DNA of 64,000 nt from Mobula hypostoma (taxonomy: Eukaryota), in the NCBI RefSeq assembly GCF_963921235.1, contig NC_086097.1:150848001-150912000 (forward strand). The letters run 5' to 3'. The translations under genes and the position numbers were made by a program. Below, piece by piece: positions 44,808 through 56,800 of the stretch; within the stretch, counting starts at the first letter, position 1, and each line of letters starts with the position of its first letter. The notes beneath the pieces are model-generated. The model searched no databases and had not been told where the DNA came from. It saw only the letters and a list, made by a program, of their open reading frames with translations.

Positions 44808-45540
44808 TAAATTCAAAGTTCAATGTAAATTTATTATCAAAGTACAAATATGTCATCATATACAATCCAGAGATCACTTCCTTGCAGACATACACAGTAA
44901 ATCCAAAAAACACAATCGAATCAATGGAAGGCTCCACCCAAAAGGACAAACAACCGACCTGTAAAAGACAACAAACTGTGCAAATACTAAAAAAGAAAGA
45001 AACAATAATAAATAAATAAGCCATAAATGTTGAGAACATGAGATGAATAGCCCTTGAAAGTGAATCCATAGGTTGTTGGAACAGTTCAGTGATGGGGCAA
45101 GTGAGGATGAGTGAAGTTAACCCCTCCGGTCCAAGAGCCTGATGGTTGAGATGAAATAACCGTTCCTGAACCTGGCAGTGTGGGTCCTGAGGCTCATGTA
45201 CCTTCTTCCTGATGGTTGAGGAGAAATAACTGTTCCTGAACCTGGCAGTGTGGGTCCTGAGGCTCCTGTACCTTCTTCCTGATGGTTGAGGAGAAATAAC
45301 TGCTCCTGGACCTGGCAGTGTGGGTCCTGAGGCTCCTGTACCTTCATCCTGATGGTGCAATTGAGAAGGAAGCACGGCCTGGTGGTGGGGGCCCTGATGA
45401 TGAATGCTGCTTTCCTGTGACAATGCTCTGTGTAAGTATGCTCTGTGGTGGGGAGGGCTTTCCCCGTGATGGACTGGGGTATATCCACTACTTTTTGTAG
45501 GATTTTCCATTTAAGGGCATTGGTGTTTCCATACCAGGCT
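44808..45540 (-). mobile_element. Rex1/Babar-like LINE 3' end
   Basis: Minus-strand motifs PSGRRYRSLRTHTARFRNSYF and RKAAFII. The 3' tail reads ATAAATTTACATTGAACTTTGAA on the minus strand near 44812-44834. Confidence 0.75.
45138..45356. repeat. 70-bp tandem triplication inside the Rex1-like fragment
   Basis: CCTGATGGT starts at 45138, 45208, 45278 and 45348 (period 70), and the copies are near-identical. Confidence 0.9.
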
Positions 45541-47125: not shown

Positions 47126-47578
47126 ACTGAAGGAAGAGTGAGTAAGGGATTTGAAAGCTGGAGGGGGAGGGTGAGATGCAAAATGATAGGAGAAGACAGG
47201 AGGGGGAGGGATAGAGCCGAGAGCTGGACAGGTGATAGGCAAAAGGGGATACGAAAGGATCATGGGACAGGAGGTCCGGGAATAAAGACGGGGGGGGGTG
47301 ACCCAGAGGATGGGCAAGAGGTATATTCAGAGGGACAGAGGGAGAAAAAGGAGAGTGAGAGAAAGAATGTGTGCATAAAAATGAGTAACAGATGGGGTAC
47401 GAGGGGGAGGTGGGGCCTAGCGGAAGTTAGAGAAGTCAATGTTCATGCCATCAGGTTGGAGGCTACCCAGACGGAATATAAGGTGTTGTTCCTCCAACCT
47501 GAGTGTGGCTTCATCTTTACAGTAGAGGAGGCCGTGGATAGACATGTCAGAATGGGAATGGGATGTGGAATTAAAAGC

Positions 47579-48646
47579 TACATCGACGACTGCATTGGCG
47601 CTGCTTCCTGCACGCATGCAGAACTCGTTGACTTTATTAACTTTGCCTCCAACTTTCACCCTGCCCTCAAGTTTACCTGGTCCATTTCCGACACCTCCCT
47701 CCCCTTTCTAGATCTTTCTGTCTCTGTCTCTGGAGACAGCTTATCCACTGATGTCTACTATAAGCCTACTGACTCTCACAGCTATCTGGACTATTCCTCT
47801 TCTCACCCTGTCTCTTGCAAAAACGCCATCCCCTTCTCGCAATTCCTCCGTCTCCGTCGCATCTGCTCTCAGGATGAGGCTTTTCATTCTAGGACGAGGG
47901 AGATGTCTTCATTTTTTAAAGAAAGGGGCTTCCCTTCCTCCACTATCAACTCTGCTCTTAAATGCATCTCCCCCATTTCACGTACATCTGCTCTCACTCC
48001 ATCCTCCCACCACCCAACTAGGAATAGGGTTCCCCTGGTCCTCACCTACCACCCCACCAGCCTCCGGGTCCAACATATTATTCTCCGTAACTTCCGCCAC
48101 CTCCAACGGGATCCCACCACTAAGCACATCTTTCCCTCCCCCCCTCTCTCTGCATTCCGCAGGGATCGCTCCCTACACAACTCCCTTGTCCATTCGTCCC
48201 CCCCATCCCTCCCCACTGATCTCCCTCATGGCACTTATCCGTGTAAGCGGAACAAGTGCTACACATGCCCTTACACTTCCTCCCTTACCACCATTCAGGG
48301 CCCCAAACAGTCCTTCCAGGTGAGGCATCACTTCACCTGTGAGTCGACTGGGGTGATATACTGCGTCCGGTGCTCCCGATGTGGCCTTTTATATATTGGT
48401 GAGACCCGACGCAGACTGGGAGACCGCTTTGCTGAACATCTACGCTCTGTCCGCCAGAGAAAGCAGGATCTCCCAGTGGCCACACATTTTAATTCCACAT
48501 CCCATTCCCATTCTGACATGTCTATCCACGGCCTCCTCTACTGTAAAGATGAAGCCACACTCAGGTTGGAGGAACAACACTTTATATTCCGTCTGGGTAG
48601 CCTCCAACCTGATGGCATGAACATTGACTTCTCTAACTTCCGCTAG
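47579..48646 (+). CDS. Partial PLE polyprotein: RT C-terminal part (from YIDD), Cys-rich linker and GIY-YIG endonuclease
   Basis: Uninterrupted frame YIDDCIG..LPFLDL..YYKPTDSHSYL..SQFLRLRRICS..CKRNKCYTC..VIYCVRCSRCGLLYIGET..RFAEH..GMN ending in TAG. It has no native start because it is 5'-truncated. Confidence 0.9.
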   Translation, partial: YIDDCIGAASCTHAELVDFINFASNFHPALKFTWSISDTSLPFLDLSVSVSGDSLSTDVYYKPTDSHSYLDYSSSHPVSCKNAIPFSQFLRLRRICSQDEAFHSRTREMSSFFKERGFPSSTINSALKCISPISRTSALTPSSHHPTRNRVPLVLTYHPTSLRVQHIILRNFRHLQRDPTTKHIFPSPPLSAFRRDRSLHNSLVHSSPPSLPTDLPHGTYPCKRNKCYTCPYTSSLTTIQGPKQSFQVRHHFTCESTGVIYCVRCSRCGLLYIGETRRRLGDRFAEHLRSVRQRKQDLPVATHFNSTSHSHSDMSIHGLLYCKDEATLRLEEQHFIFRLGSLQPDGMNIDFSNFR

Positions 48647-48976: not shown

Positions 48977-49885
48977 CGCCTCTCCCTATAGATGCTGCTT
49001 GGCCTGCTGCGTTCACCAGCAACTTTGATGTGTGTTGCTTGAATTTCCAGCATCTGCAGAATTCCTGTTGTTTGCTCTATAATACACTACTTCTTAAGAT
49101 TCATAACACTCTTGATCTAACCTTTAAGTAGTTATGTTCAGAGATAAGTTCTTCTGAGAATCAGTGCTGTACTCAATACCTAATCTGTCAGACACATAGG
49201 TGAAGAAAATTTTACTCGACAGAGGAGTAAAATGAATTTTTACCAAATGTTTTTATTTAATAAACATTGAACATTGAACCTTGAAAAGGCAAAGTCACCT
49301 CACAGAATCATGAGCTCTCGATTTTCTGTAAATCTATCATGGATTCTTAAACTCAGATATTCTGGAAATGTTGTGACACTAATAGCTGACAATTGAATCT
49401 TCCTGGCCTCTTTTGATCCAATATTGAAAGAAATACCTTCTGGAAGATAGAAGCAGCTTAAGCTGGGATAGCTGATGGCCAGTATCAGTCTTTCTATGCA
49501 GTTCTTCTTTTTTTATCAATTTATACCAATAATAATTAGTCTTGCTTACTGAGCACAACTCACCACATATTTTTTACTTTAAGAATCAAGTAGCACCATG
49601 TATCAGTGCATTGTACTGTATTTATATCTATTCAGCTTTCGGGCTTAAATCCAATTAAAATTGACAGAAGTCTGAGCTAATTAATTATACAGTATCAGAT
49701 GAATTAGGGTAAATGCAGCATTAAGTAAAGAAATGAACAACTACATTATTTCAACATACATTGCTGGTTTAAAAACAAAAATTTCACAAAGAGGTAAAGA
49801 AGGAAATAAATAATAATCCGAAGTGATAACTGAATAAAAATGTACATTTGGACGGAAGCTTTGACATGATAAAGCATCCCGTGAC

Positions 49886-50119
49886 TGTGGTAAACCATAT
49901 ATGTATGTTGTAACTGGGTTACCTGTCTGGACGCGCTCCTCTGCTGGCTGCCCCTGTGGCTCCTCCCACTGACCCCTGAATAAAGGCGATTGGGCCTTGG
50001 CTCCTCCTCTCAGTTCAGGGGCAGACACTCAGCATGCTGGAGGTCATATTTTACTGTGAATAAAAGCCTTTCAGTATTTACCCTACTTCCAGTCTTTTGG
50101 AGTTATTGATGGTGCCTCA
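49886..50119 (+). repeat. 5' LTR
   Basis: TGTGGTAA...GGTGCCTCA, a direct repeat of 52314-52546. AATAAA at 50059-50064. Confidence 0.95.
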
Positions 50120-50120
50120 A

Positions 50121-50135
50121 TTTTATTCACAGTAA
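50121..50135 (+). promoter_or_regulatory. PBS-position element complementary to the element's own LTR (candidate self-priming site or polyA mask)
   Basis: TTTTATTCACAGTAA lies 1 nt after the LTR end and is the exact reverse complement of TTACTGTGAATAAAA (50051-50065). No TGG-starting tRNA PBS occurs before the gag ATG at 50145. Confidence 0.7.
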
Positions 50136-50144
50136 TTTTAAAGC

Positions 50145-51085
50145 ATGGAACGTTCCCTGAGACCCGACAAGTTAGACCTCGACCCACAAACACCTGAAGC
50201 TGGAAACGCTTTCGAACTCTGGCTGGCCTGCTTCGAATCATACCTAGAGGCGATTGAAATGATTGACTCCACAGCAAAGCGCAGAGTTCTCCTTTCCAGG
50301 GTCAGTCCACGGGTCTACTCGATGATCAGAGACCAGCCGAGCTACGACGGCACAATGAGCACACTCAAAGGACAATACCTGCGGCCGGCAAACACCGCCT
50401 ATACGCGCCATCACTTAGCAACACGGCAACAGCAGCCCGGGGAATCGAGTGCTGAGTTTGTCCAGGCACTACAGACGCTCGTGTGGACCTGCGACTGCCA
50501 GGGGCTGACGGCAGTACAGCATGCGGCGCTCCTAGTGAGAGACGCCTTCGTCGCCGAGACCAGGTCAGTGTATGTGCACCAGCGGCTGCTGGAGAAAGCT
50601 GCTCTTACCTTACATTCGGCGATCAAGCTGGCCGACATGCTGGAGGCCACTCTGCACAACTCTGAGGCTCTCCAGGCACGTGATCCCCTGATGGCCTCAT
50701 GGGTGCCGCAGACCTGCAACCCGCTGGCGAATCGACCTCGGCTGCTGCCAGTTGCGAGACTGCAAAGTGCTACTTCTGTGGACTCGAGAAGCACCCCCAG
50801 AAATGCTGCCCGGGCCGAGAAGCTACCTGTTCCAGCTGCGGAAAGAAAGGCCACTTCGCCAAGGTCTGTAAGTCCAAACCACGAGCAGGATTGAGCAGCG
50901 CCACGTGCGAGACATGGGGGTCACCATCTTGCCTGCTGCCATCTTCCCTGCACGCCGCCACCACATGCGAGACATGGGGCGGCCATCTTGGTCGGCAGCA
51001 CGTCCCACCACCTACGACCAACGGGTGCTCACGGGGCACCCCACCGCGCCGGACCAAGACAGCGACTCAACCCTGGCCTCCGTGA
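50145..51085 (+). pseudogene. gag: gag with tandem Cys/His knuckles, frameshifted near 50715
   Basis: MERSLRPDKLDLDP..WLACFESYL..RQQQPGES..VRDAFV, then in a shifted frame CYFCGLEKHPQKCCPGREATCSSCGKKGHFAKVC (~50768-50868), a Mag-type arrangement. Confidence 0.85.
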
Positions 51086-52244
51086 CCCTCGACCAAAGCG
51101 CTCCCCACCAGCTCGCAAGGTCAATGATGGACATCCTGGTGAGGGGTGCAGGACAAGCTGCCTGTTTGATACAGGCAGCACGGAGAGTTTTATCCACCCA
51201 GACACGATGCAGCATTGCGGACTCGCAATACGGCCAGTAAGTCAGAGGGTCGCCATGGCTTCCTGGTCACATACAACAGACATCTGAGGGGTGGGGGGGG
51301 GTTGTGTAGCGACACTAGTGGTGCAGGGCACAGAATATCGAGACTTTACGTTACTGGTCATGCCTCAACTGTGTGCCCCTGTGCTATTGGGGCTCGACTT
51401 CCAGAGCCACCTGAAAAGCGTGACAATGCAGTATGATGGGCCCCTCCCACCAATCACTGTTGTAAATCCTCAGTTTTGTAGGGATACGTCACATACCCCG
51501 CTACTGACCACACGCACACACCGACCCGCGCATCCCACCCAACATCATGCCAACTGCCACAATTCCGACACCACTTGGGGCCTCTCCACCCTCAGGATCC
51601 CTCCCCCACCGCTGTTCGCCAACCTGACCCCCGACTGTAAACCTGTGGCAACTAAAAGCAGGAGGTACAGCGCAGGGGACAGAGCTTTCATTAAGTCGGA
51701 GGTGCAGCGGCTGCTCAGGGAGGTGGTCATTGAGGCAAGCACAAGTCCTTGGAGGGCGCAGGTGGTGGTTGTTCGGAACGGGGAGGAGAATAGAATGGTC
51801 GTGGACTATAGCCAGACCATTAATAGGTTCACGCAGCTCAACGCGTACCCTCTACCCCGCATCGCGGATATGGTCAATCAGATAGCACAGTACAAGGTGT
51901 ACTTGACCATAGACCTAAAATCCGCTTACCATCAGCTCCCCATCCATCAGGAGGACCGCCCTTACACCGCCTTCGAGGCGGACGGCAGGCTTTATCACTT
52001 CCTGCGCATCCCCTTCGGTGTCACGAATGGTGTATCTTACTTACTTCATGCGAACCCCCAGTATGCCTATGTGGTTTTACCCATACCGGGCGCAACGCAC
52101 ACGCACGAGGGATTACCGACGCCTAATGTGCTGGCACCTGAAGTCAGGCCGGAGCCAGCACAACCGCCATCGCCGGTGCAATCACCGCCGGTGCTACGTA
52201 GGTCACAGCGACAGACTCGACCGCCTGATAGACTTAACCTGTAA
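51080..52244 (+). pseudogene. pol: pol remnant: aspartic protease, RT N-terminal half and probable integrase C-terminal scraps
   Basis: LFDTGS at 51162-51179; LLGLDF; SPWRAQVVVV..RMVVDY..YPLPRI..IDLKSAYHQL..TAF..PFGVTNG. The frame breaks off before YxDD (~52037) and continues as LLHANPQYAYV..RRSQRQTRPPDRL. Confidence 0.88.
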
Positions 52245-52295
52245 ATATACTTCTTGTAAATATTGTCAGCCTCTTCACCCCGTGGGACTCTTTTT

Positions 52296-52313
52296 AAAAA
52301 AAGGAGGGGTGAG
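52296..52313 (+). promoter_or_regulatory. Polypurine tract
   Basis: AAAAAAAGGAGGGGTGAG immediately before the 3' LTR. Confidence 0.85.
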
Positions 52314-52546
52314 TGTGGTAAGCCATGTACATATGTGGTAACTGGGTTACCTGTCTGGACACACCCCTCTGCTGACTGACCCTGTGGCTCCTCCCACAGA
52401 GTCCTGTATAAAGGCGTTTGGGCCTTGGCTCCTCCTCTCAGTTCAGGGGTAGACACTCAGCATGCTGGAGGTCACATTTTACTGTGAATAAAAGCCTTTC
52501 AGTATTTACCCTACTTCCAGTCTTTGGAGTTATTGATGGTGCCTCA
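52314..52546 (+). repeat. 3' LTR
   Basis: Direct repeat of 49886-50119. TATAAA at 52407-52412 and an Inr-like TCAGTT at 52438-52443. Confidence 0.95.
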
Positions 52547-52780
52547 ATGACCTGCACAGGAATAGTTTCAAATGAGGTCTGTTACTGAGCCAGACAAGGA
52601 AATATTGGATTGGAAATTCATTTGCCTAAAGCCCTAAAATCTAGTGCTAAGTAAACAAACTTCGCATTTAAAGCAAATTAAGAATTTCTATACATAACTA
52701 ATTGGAAGTTAATGCTGGTAACATTTTTCCCCACGTCATCTAGAACACCTAATGGTAGTGCAATATATAAGAGATTACTT

Positions 52781-53857: not shown

Positions 53858-56800
53858 GCCAATGACATAAGTAGGAAAAGGGAAGAGGTCCTGAAAACAG
53901 ACAGCAGGAAGTTAGGAAGGAAGTTGAGAAGCAGGACCTCAAAGGTAGAAATCTCAGGATTACTGCCTGTGTCACATGATAGTGAGTATAGGAATAGAAT
54001 GAGGTGGAGAATAAATGCTCGGCTGAAGGATTGGAGCAGGGGGGCAGGGATTCAGATTTCTAGATCATTGGGACCTCTTCGGGGGCAGATGTGACCTGTA
54101 CAAAAAGGATGGGTTGCACTTGAATCTGAGAGGGCCCAATAACCTGGCGGGAAGGTTTGCTAAGGCTATTGGGGATAGTTTAAACTAGAATTGCTGGAGG
54201 GTGGGAAACGAACTGAAGTGACGGAGGAAAGGGAGGTTGGCTCACAAAAGGAGAAAGTTTGGAGACAGTGCAAAAAGGAGGATAGGCAGGTGATAGAGAA
54301 GGGATGCACTCAGACTGATGGTTTGAGGTGTGTCTATTTTATGTGAGGAGTATCATGAATAAAGTGGATGAGCTTAGAGCTTGGATCAGCACTTGGAGCT
54401 ATGATGTTGTGGCCATTGGATGGTGCAGGGGCAGGAATGGCTACCTCAAGTACCAGGCTTTTGATGTTTTAGAAAGGATAGGGAGGGAGGCAAAAGAGGT
54501 GGGGGCATGGCACTGCTGATCAGAGATATTGCCACAGCTGCAGAAAAGGAGGAAGTCATGGAGGGGTTGTCTACGGAGTCTCTGTGGGTGGAAGTTAGGA
54601 ATAGGAAGAGTCAATAACTCTACTGGATGTTTTTTGTAGATCACTCTATAGTAACAGGGACATTGAGGAGCAGATAGGGAGACAGATTCTGGAAAGGAGT
54701 AATAATAACAGGGCTATTGAGGTGGGAGATTTTAATTTTCCTAATATTGATTAGCATCTCCCTAGAGTGAGGGGTTTAGATGGGGTAGAGTTTGTTAGGT
54801 GTATTCAGGAAGGTTTCTTGACACAATATGTAGATAAGCCTATAAGAGGAGAGTCTGTACTTGATCTGGTATTGGGAAATGAACTTGGTCAGGTGTCAGG
54901 TCTCTCAGTGGGAGAGCATTTTGGAGATTGTGATCACAATTCCACCTCCATTACCATAGCATTGGAGAGGGATAGGAACAGAAAAGTTAGGGAAACGTTT
55001 AATTGGAGTAAGGGGAAATATGAGGTTATCAGGCAGGAACTTAGAAGCATAAATTGGAAACAGATGTTTTCAGGGAAACGTACGGAAGAAATGTGGCAAA
55101 TGCTCGGGATTTTTGCATGGGGTTCTGAGTAGGTACGTTCCAATGAGATATGGAAAGGATGGTAGGGTACAAGATCCGTGGTGTACAAAGGTGTAAATAT
55201 AGTCAAGAAGAAAAGAAGAGCTGACGCATGGTTCAAAAAACTAGGTAATGATAGGAATCTAGAAGATTATAAGGCTAGCAGGAAGGAGCTTAAGAATGAA
55301 ATTAGGAGAGCCAGAAGGGACCACGAGAAGGCCTTGGTGGACAGGATGAAGGAAAACCCCAAGGCATTCTACAAGTATCTGAAGAGCAAAAGGATAAGAT
55401 GTGAGCGAATAGGACCAATCAAGTGTGACAGTGGAAAAGTGTGTATGGAAATAGGGGAAATAGCGGAGGTACTTAATGAATACTTTGCTTCAGTATTCAC
55501 TACAGAAAAGGATCTTGGTGATTGTAGGATGACTTGCAGTGGACTGAAAAGCTTGAGCATGTAGGTATTAAGGAAGAGGGTGTGCTGGAGCTTTTGGAAA
55601 GCATTGAATTAGATAAGTCACTGGGACTGGACGGGATGTACCCCAGGCTACTGTGGGAAGCAAGGGAAGAGATTGCTGAGCCTCTGGCAATGACCTTTGC
55701 ATCATCAACATGGATGGGAGAGGTTCCGGAGGATTGGAGGGTTGCGGATGTTGTTCCCTTATTCAAGAAAGGAAGTAGGGATAGCCCAGGAAATTATAGA
55801 CCAGTGAATCTTACTTCAGTGGTTGGTAAGTTGATGGAGAAGATCCAGAGAGGCCCGATTTATGAACATTTGGAGAGGCATAATATGATTAGGAATAGTC
55901 AGCATGGATTTGTCAAAGGCAGGTTCATGCCTTCTGAGCCTGATTGATTTTTTTGAGGATGGGACTAAGCACATTGATGAAGGTAGAGCAGTAGATATAG
56001 TGTATATGGATTTCAGCAAGGCATTTGATAAGGTACCCCATGCAAGCCTTATTGAGAAAGTAAGGAGGCATAGGATCCAAGGGGACATTGCTTTGTGGAT
56101 CCAGAACTGGCTTGCCCACAGAAGGTAAAGAGTGGTTGTAGACGGGTCATATTCTGCATGCAGGCCGGTGACCAGTGGTGTGCTTCAGGGATCTGTTCTG
56201 GAACCCTACTCTTTGTGATTTTTATAAATGACCTGGATGATGAAGTGGAGGGATGGGTTAGTAAATTTGCTGATGACACAAAAGTTGGGGGTATTGTGGA
56301 TAGTGTGGAGGGCTATCAGAGGTTATAACAGGACATTGATAGGATTCAAAACTGGGCTGAGAAGTGGCAGATGGAGTTCAACCCAGATAAGTGTGAGGTG
56401 GTTCATTTTGGTAGGTCAAATATGATGGCAGAATACAGCAGTAATTGTAAGACTCTTGGCAGTGTGGAGGATCAGAGGGATCTTGGGGTCCAAGTCCATA
56501 GGACACTCAAAGCTGCTACGCAGGTTGACTCTGTGGTTAAGAAAGCATATGGTGCCTTGGCCTTCATCAATCATGAGATTGAGTTTAAGAGCCAAGAGGT
56601 AATGTTGCAGCTATATAGGACCCTGGTCAGACCCCACTTGGAGTACTGTGCTCAATTCTGGTCGCCTCACTAAAGGAAGGACGTGGAAACCATAGAAAGG
56701 GTGCAGAGGAGATTTACAAGGATGTTGCCTGGATTGAGGAGCATGCCTGATGAGAATAGGTTGCGTGAACTTGCTCTTTTCTCCTTGGAGCGACAGAGGA

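Follow-up and report, generated by a model that had tools for sequence, protein, structure and literature searches.

How does an LTR retrotransposon begin reverse transcription when its leader carries no tRNA-type primer site and is complementary to its own LTR? The question is raised by a decayed Ty3/Gypsy element in the 64,000-nucleotide stretch of Mobula hypostoma DNA analysed here (the window; contig NC_086097.1, positions 150,848,001 to 150,912,000, forward strand).

Structure of the element and its LTR-leader complement

The element spans 49886-52546 on the + strand and is bounded by LTRs of 234 bp (5′; 49886-50119) and 233 bp (3′; 52314-52546), both TG...CA, with flanking target-site duplications, GTGAC (49881-49885) and ATGAC (52547-52551), that share four of five letters. 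A 25-nt leader separates the 5′ LTR from the gag ATG (50145), where a decayed gag-pro-RT region begins (50145-52037), with frameshifts, the zinc knuckle and the gag start in different frames, and RT ended early by an internal deletion. The leftover 3′ end of pol (52038-52295, recognised by comparison with a long copy) and the polypurine tract (PPT) plus 4 nt (52296-52313) precede the 3′ LTR. Deletions of ~1.6 kb and 0.16 kb relative to the long copy have removed the remainder of RT, together with RNase H and most of the integrase; the window copy is a dead, internally deleted member, likely mobilised by proteins from intact relatives. Long copies in the genome are 4.4-4.8 kb, with PR-RT-RH-IN order and 5-bp target duplications, and these features, together with TG...CA LTRs and the PPT, assign the lineage to Ty3/Gypsy (closest solved structure, Ty3). 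Contig depth in four runs, a rough measure, was roughly 10-100x higher over the LTR (49886-50119) than over the internal region, which suggests many more solo LTRs.

An earlier note on this DNA had described a perfect 15-nt complement between leader and LTR, and its coordinates were verified. The predicted primer-binding site, TTTTATTCACAGTAA (50121-50135), is the reverse complement of an LTR segment, TTACTGTGAATAAAA (the partner; 50051-50065), that contains AATAAA at 50059-50064, is the predicted self-primer, and recurs identically in the 3′ LTR at 52479-52493. The complement has the correct polarity for priming and begins 1 nt past the LTR CA, after a single-A spacer (50120), and the leader has no TGG at the primer position, as the note had also stated. 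The 54 nt from the partner to the LTR end (50066-50119; remaining R plus U5) would form a loop, with a predicted stem stacked on the 3′ end of the primer.

The window holds three matches to the 15-mer where 0.17 would be expected (0 of 100 shuffles), and the longest leader complement, 15 nt, compares with a maximum of 11 nt among 20,000 shuffled 25-nt leaders. The fold of 50045-50147 has z = -5.6, yet that of 50010-50150 just -1.85. Rfam gave no match over 49800-50300, and the best complement to a host tRNA was 5 nt, among just 24 tRNA sequences of three isotypes.

Conservation and covariation among copies in the genome

A junction search of the 3.5 Gb genome gave 3,175 candidates, of which 40 were scored and 30 loci returned; the TGG primer site was absent in all 30. 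Over the 15 paired positions, these copies have Watson-Crick pairs in 427 of 450 cells and G-U pairs in 9, and 14 copies pair perfectly. At position 8, 13 copies have G-C, 11 have T-A, and the other 6 have a wobble or no match. Genome-wide counts of exact junctions, covering only those that match at all other positions, gave (LTR type/primer-site type) 41 GA/GA, 38 TA/TA, 3 GA/TA and 7 TA/GA, so that the variant in the LTR corresponds to that in the leader at 79 of 89 junctions and is discordant at 10. The Fisher p of 2e-14 for this covariation is overstated, since the junctions are not independent: they represent one substitution pair spread by subfamilies, not 79 events. Four copies (L302, L307, L308, L312) form a sub-lineage with an extra A after the primer site, giving a 16-bp duplex.

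The window's own TG/CA spelling is rare, present on both arms in one of 21 loci, i.e. in the window alone, and may derive from CpG decay or parental inheritance. This rarity is what speaks for a chance or copy-specific inverted duplication without function. The family-wide CG/CG and TA/TA versions pair as well as the window's, however, and the same layout recurs in five distant families (below), which leaves that explanation hardly credible.

Distant families share the layout with different sequences

Relatives of the encoded protein are numerous (1,220 proteins at E 1e-50 among 7,986 candidates scored). Named protein matches come from rays, sharks (closest), a sea anemone, Trichuris and Trichinella, in which the lineage is known here from proteins alone; a cockroach match came from a separate, longer protein search (five matches, none a named Mag). 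No relatives of the lineage were found in viral contigs. Distant DNA comprised 31 metagenome loci and 9 genome-bin loci, of which 21 and 8 were examined. Nine of the distant loci (L140-L148) are retrotransposons of animal type within contigs that had been binned as bacterial genomes, probably through host contamination.

Pairing was present in 17 of the 29 distant loci, the remaining 12 being without a readable 5′ junction (truncated, deleted or interrupted), and none of the 17 readable junctions has a TGG site. The paired loci represent five families, with differing LTR sequences and about 51-61% RT/RNase H identity to the M. hypostoma copies (measurable only over short pieces in L147). Duplex lengths are 15 bp in the window, 19 in L051, 17 in L060 and 14 in each of L140, L144 and L147; L142, a decayed copy of the L144 family, retains 10 nt of complement. 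Including the window's, six families thus have six different primer-site sequences, each complementary to its own LTR. The register is invariant in all six: the complement starts exactly 1 nt after CA and the spacer is A. The partner always closes with AAA, next to which come a purine and C/T, and stops 23-54 nt short of the LTR end; in five families it contains AATAAA or ATTAAA (GTTAAA in L051). Three families were folded (z -5.6, -7.7 and -5.7), and in each a stem is predicted to stack on the 3′ end of the partner.

Both the conservation and the covariation that the earlier note had proposed as checks are therefore present, among the 89 junctions and across the six families, and the distant junctions and common register refute a copy-specific rearrangement. 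The leader complement is a real, lineage-wide structure.

These families also bear on priming by a host RNA (a tRNA fragment or other small RNA), with the LTR match a by-product. In favour of this, the TA variant resembles 9 nt of what we take to be the tRNA-Ser anticodon loop, and the tRNA sample compared held 24 sequences of three isotypes only. Half-tRNA priming is also described for Copia lineages in the available text of PMC6317226 (this and the other papers cited are represented by partial texts). Against it, all six primer-site sequences match their own LTR, so that six host RNAs would be needed, each with the sequence of an LTR segment, and Rfam gave no candidate; we consider this explanation very improbable.

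Predicted hiding of the 5′ polyadenylation signal

Because the primer site lies outside the LTR, the earlier note had suggested that the duplex hides AAUAAA in the 5′ LTR only, with a competing 9-bp helix leaving it open in the 3′ LTR. In the 5′ context AAUAAA is predicted to be unpaired with a probability no higher than 0.01; in the 3′ context the value is 0.96-0.99 at five of its six positions, so a switch of this kind is predicted in the window. The 9-bp helix exists (50036-50044 with 50085-50093) and is intact in 19 of 30 copies, but is broken at one or two pairs in the other 11, mostly by C>G without compensating change.

If hiding were the main role, protecting against premature polyadenylation, another host RNA or mechanism would prime. 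The folding predictions and the AATAAA or ATTAAA within the partner in five of six families favour this, but as a sole explanation it is disfavoured by L051, which holds its 19-bp duplex with no canonical hexamer, and by the exact 1-nt register to the LTR end, which occlusion does not need. The duplex, moreover, fills the sole place for a primer, for which Rfam and the 24-tRNA comparison gave no alternative. We regard a mainly protective role as improbable; hiding of the 5′ signal is likely a side effect, secondary to self-priming. Self-priming in some form, whether from the cap region or by an internal or trans-acting copy of the segment, is very probable.

Integrated fold-back copies

The pattern LTR end + primer site + inverted LTR has 28 matches in the genome and none in the control. 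Three matches (L128, L132, L139) were dropped, as no LTR lies upstream of them; they are probably ordinary LTRs in reverse orientation. Arms reach the LTR start in 20 of the 28, and 11 fold-backs consist of a whole LTR plus such an arm. Among these 11, five (L119, L123, L127, L131, L135) have perfect 5-bp target duplications, L130 a 4/5 match, and three none. The six with perfect or near-perfect duplications are ~415-bp palindromic mini-elements (LTR + primer site + inverted R-U3), and they make up a by-product class of their own in the family. From the 5-bp duplications we infer that the palindromes were made as cDNA and inserted by integrase, and hence that the cDNA ended in primer-site sequence and paired with the LTR segment; for Tf1, a single-stranded copy of the primer site is kept on about half of cDNAs (PMC11042837, partial text). 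As sequence evidence, the fold-backs indicate that the two complementary sites paired during reverse transcription.

In the last two of the 11, L118 and L125, the arms extend beyond U3 to include the PPT and about 110-125 nt of internal sequence. In L123 and L135 the arms belong to a subfamily haplotype other than that of their own LTR, which implies that some pairings took place between molecules, and those of L120 and L131 mismatch their own LTR at the GA/TA site. The fold-backs do not identify the primer, since they could form with any primer that is complementary to the site. Seven short arms end at scattered positions (LTR 118, 124, 143, 148, 149, 152 and 157, that at 149 belonging to a dropped match), and these ends mark no cap. 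Junctions bearing a short primer tail were also sought; the 18 matches obtained were 10 known fold-backs and 8 ordinary elements.

Transcription start and position of the primer

The earlier note had placed transcription start near 50012 from a TATA box and Inr, making the partner an internal segment of the RNA. Two Inr-like motifs are present: TCAGTTC (50010-50016, A at 50012), a candidate start, and TCATATT (50044-50050, A at 50046), 5 nt before the partner; such motifs are short and common. The hexamer upstream of the first (49979-49984), a possible TATA-like box in an inferred role, is AATAAA in the 5′ LTR of the window, and TATAAA occurs in its 3′ LTR alone. Among 56 LTRs (28 elements with target duplications) it is AATAAA in 38, TATAAA in 4, other in 8 and unparsed in 6. 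In family L060 the Inr-like TCATTTC sets +1 on the first paired base. The start near 50012 is thus unsupported, and with it a preference for an internal primer over one at the cap; a start within 50044-50050 would make the arrangement nearly Tf1-like.

Differences between one element's two LTRs (28 elements, the window included) are common upstream of the partner and rare from the partner onward: at most sites in LTR 107-162 they affect subfamily sites in 2-8 of 28 pairs, at one site of that interval 13 of 28, and at LTR 173-226 only 0-2 of 28. This is a gradient with no boundary. Reading the start site from such differences was rejected, the strong U3 discordance obtained early being a bias of selection on the 5′ LTR. 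They could arise by strand transfer in trans or by gene conversion, and an age estimated from LTR divergence would be too high.

Two primer sources other than the cap region were considered. In one, transcription begins near 50012 and an internal segment primes, its 40-nt leader being retained or lost; in the other, the primer acts in trans and is a 3′ R, still joined to U3 and cut after AAUAAA(A), from the same RNA or from one packaged with it. Both draw on TCAGTTC lying 33 nt past the AT-rich hexamer, on the identity of the partner in both LTRs, and on fold-back arms that mostly span all of U3. An internal primer is further suggested by L112, whose arm ends at LTR 124 beside the upstream Inr-like motif, but TATAAA is a minority haplotype (4/56), the L060 motif places +1 at the duplex itself, and a long 5′ extension would leave plus-strand synthesis without a natural stop. 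Priming in trans fits the fold-backs equally well, given the extensions in L118 and L125 and the foreign haplotypes in L123 and L135, with the GA/TA sites of L120 and L131 also in its favour; a cDNA ending in the primer site and annealing to another plus-strand LTR would, however, yield the same arms. Self-priming by such another piece is possible though unlikely. On sequence and on analogy with Tf1, the reading that we favour, as probable, is that the element's own LTR RNA segment, at or within a few nucleotides of the cap, primes reverse transcription instead of a tRNA.

Relationship to known elements

Conserved domain searches found no chromodomain or Tf2-type SH3 in 21 homologues (E <= 0.01), nor in two genome copies, while in-genome controls gave SH3_Tf2-1 in L159, L161 and L163 and Chromo also in L159. 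An unrooted RT tree (26 sequences, ~235 aa, LG+G4; without a named Tf1, sushi-ichi or Mag sequence) splits 14 lineage members from 12 others by a long branch (bootstrap 100). Four RTs of the genome that we take to be sushi-like, on domains, domain order and motifs, form a separate branch with one plant SH3_Tf2-1 protein (bootstrap 100); the lineage RT is 24-30% identical to the members of this branch, and 24-28% to the sushi-like elements of the genome. The doubt whether the element might belong with the known self-priming group is thereby answered: its RT does not group with chromodomain-bearing sushi-like elements, and with neither chromodomain nor SH3 the lineage is not Tf1/sushi. Of 116 homologues in which the RT catalytic motif was parsed, 94 have YxDN and 22 have YxDD; no paper connecting YLDN with a retrotransposon was found in the literature.

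The other Gypsy-type families of the genome (L199-L210, L159-L168) comprise elements with integrase before RT (Gmr1-like) and a family with RT-RH-spacer-IN order, both with TGG-type primer sites, presumably for tRNA-Pro, as well as abundant sushi-like elements. In decayed sushi-like copies the perfect complement is just 7-8 nt long and, in three of four, situated far upstream within the LTR.

A search of the literature, which lay outside Repbase, GyDB and subscription journals, found no description of self-priming in a non-chromovirus animal Gypsy element, and priority is uncertain; Repbase carries notes on self-priming Gypsy families. As far as their available texts go, PMC5006619, PMC6934838 and PMC8220671 add no such case. 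Tf1 RNA pairs through its first 11 bases, and cleavage by RNase H falls between bases 11 and 12 (PMC7175516); in Tf2 the start site governs the presence of the primer (PMC5341516), and self-priming is given as a common feature of the Tf1/sushi group (bioRxiv 2022.12.06.519325; PMC4600332). Hairpin priming has been postulated as ancestral, although listed for some chromoviruses only (PMC3601003). For Tcn1 and for the TAR lineage of Copia, too, self-priming was predicted, on the basis of at least 10 bp of LTR complement that starts 0-5 bp past the 5′ LTR (PMC6317226).

With Tf1/Tf2, Tj1, Tosmo1-3 and Tf1/sushi elements generally, the lineage shares Ty3/Gypsy membership, PR-RT-RH-IN order, the lack of a tRNA site and a primer site directed against the 5′ LTR, but it lacks the chromodomain and Tf2-type SH3 and its RT lies outside the chromovirus branch. 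Its partner is 14-19 nt long, against 11 paired bases in Tf1, and ends in a poly(A) hexamer in five of six families; its distance to the LTR end is also short, at 23-54 nt, where the decayed sushi-like copies have ~230 nt. As to the three-duplex 'pretzel' around the primer site in the Tf1/sushi group, a stem stacked on the primer 3′ end is predicted in all three folded families, but no duplex was predicted in them between the loop and sequence after the primer site. The complement and its position would equally place the lineage among the predictions made for TAR (Houba, Osr-1; plant Ty1/Copia) and the Tcn1 clade, but TAR belongs to another superfamily and Tcn1 is a chromovirus, they come from plants and fungi, and the available part of PMC6317226 gives no link to a poly(A) signal. 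Self-priming outside chromoviruses is thus a proposal made before. Skipper of Dictyostelium shares the lack of TGG and a pyrimidine-rich leader start, but has a chromodomain and, according to the partial text, no complement in its own LTR (PMC5006619).

Mag elements (A, B and C clades; Mag, SURL, CFG1) resemble the lineage in compact size (4.4-4.8 kb), LTRs of about 150-235 bp, 5-bp target duplication, absence of a chromodomain and a marine-animal range. The double zinc knuckle here is, we assume, of Mag type, while the RT motifs (YTAFEA...PFGVTNG...YLDN) appear unlike the Mag pattern. No Mag-type RT was found among the other Gypsy-type loci of the genome that were examined. Mag elements of Culex have primer sites for tRNA Leu, Ser or Arg (PMC3286476, partial text), in contrast to the lineage here, without TGG in any of 30 genome copies or 17 readable distant junctions. 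The lineage could be an unplaced mollusc clade such as MolGy1 or MolGy2 (PMC6238403, partial text).

Proposed priming mechanism and its implications

In the favoured mechanism, the R segment 50051-50065 would form the 15-bp duplex, a pairing evident in the sequence, with the site 1 nt past the LTR end. By analogy with Tf1, the element's RNase H would then cut the RNA just 3′ of AAUAAA(A), leaving a 3′-OH that faces the spacer A and the LTR CA. From this end RT would copy the 54-nt loop (50066-50119), the part copied first, into strong-stop DNA, which would jump to the 3′ R via the short interval that separates AAUAAA from the poly(A) site. Plus-strand synthesis would presumably copy the primer, so that cDNA ends carry the primer site and sometimes re-pair with the LTR to give fold-backs, of which the integrated copies would be genomic traces. 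The same duplex is predicted to hide the 5′ AAUAAA while leaving the 3′ copy open, probably a secondary benefit.

Tf1 provides the demonstrated example of self-priming, which is regarded as characteristic of the Tf1/sushi chromoviruses; the texts available add one predicted case, in Copia. The self-priming signature outside chromoviruses would point to another origin, or to ancient retention, of tRNA-free priming, and the lineage bears on whether hairpin priming came before tRNA priming in LTR elements. The invariant AAA/cut/A/CA geometry makes a sharp prediction of where RNase H would cut an RNA duplex, and the AAUAAA overlap would be a compact solution to 5′ versus 3′ polyadenylation. Annotation tools that require a tRNA site will miss elements of this lineage. 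We advance with considerable reserve the further idea of an animal-wide non-chromovirus Gypsy lineage with Tf1-independent self-priming, its poly(A)-signal primer taken from inside R or from a co-packaged 3′ LTR. If this were true, one duplex would link the choice of poly(A) site with the initiation of reverse transcription, and an RT that is mostly YxDN, not YxDD, would need an exact-register cut of an internal RNA duplex.

Other features of the window

Positions 1-29500 consist of ~29 kb of degenerate (GT)n-rich simple sequence whose strand skew is extreme (GC skew about 0.88, AT skew about -0.82), and three tandem 70-bp copies lie at 45138-45356. The segment 47019-49045, which we take to be a Penelope-like element, contains a 487-aa ORF (47183-48646) with a weak GIY-YIG match, and 280-287-bp inverted duplications. 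LINE RT fragments, presumably CR1-like, are found at 55636-56673.
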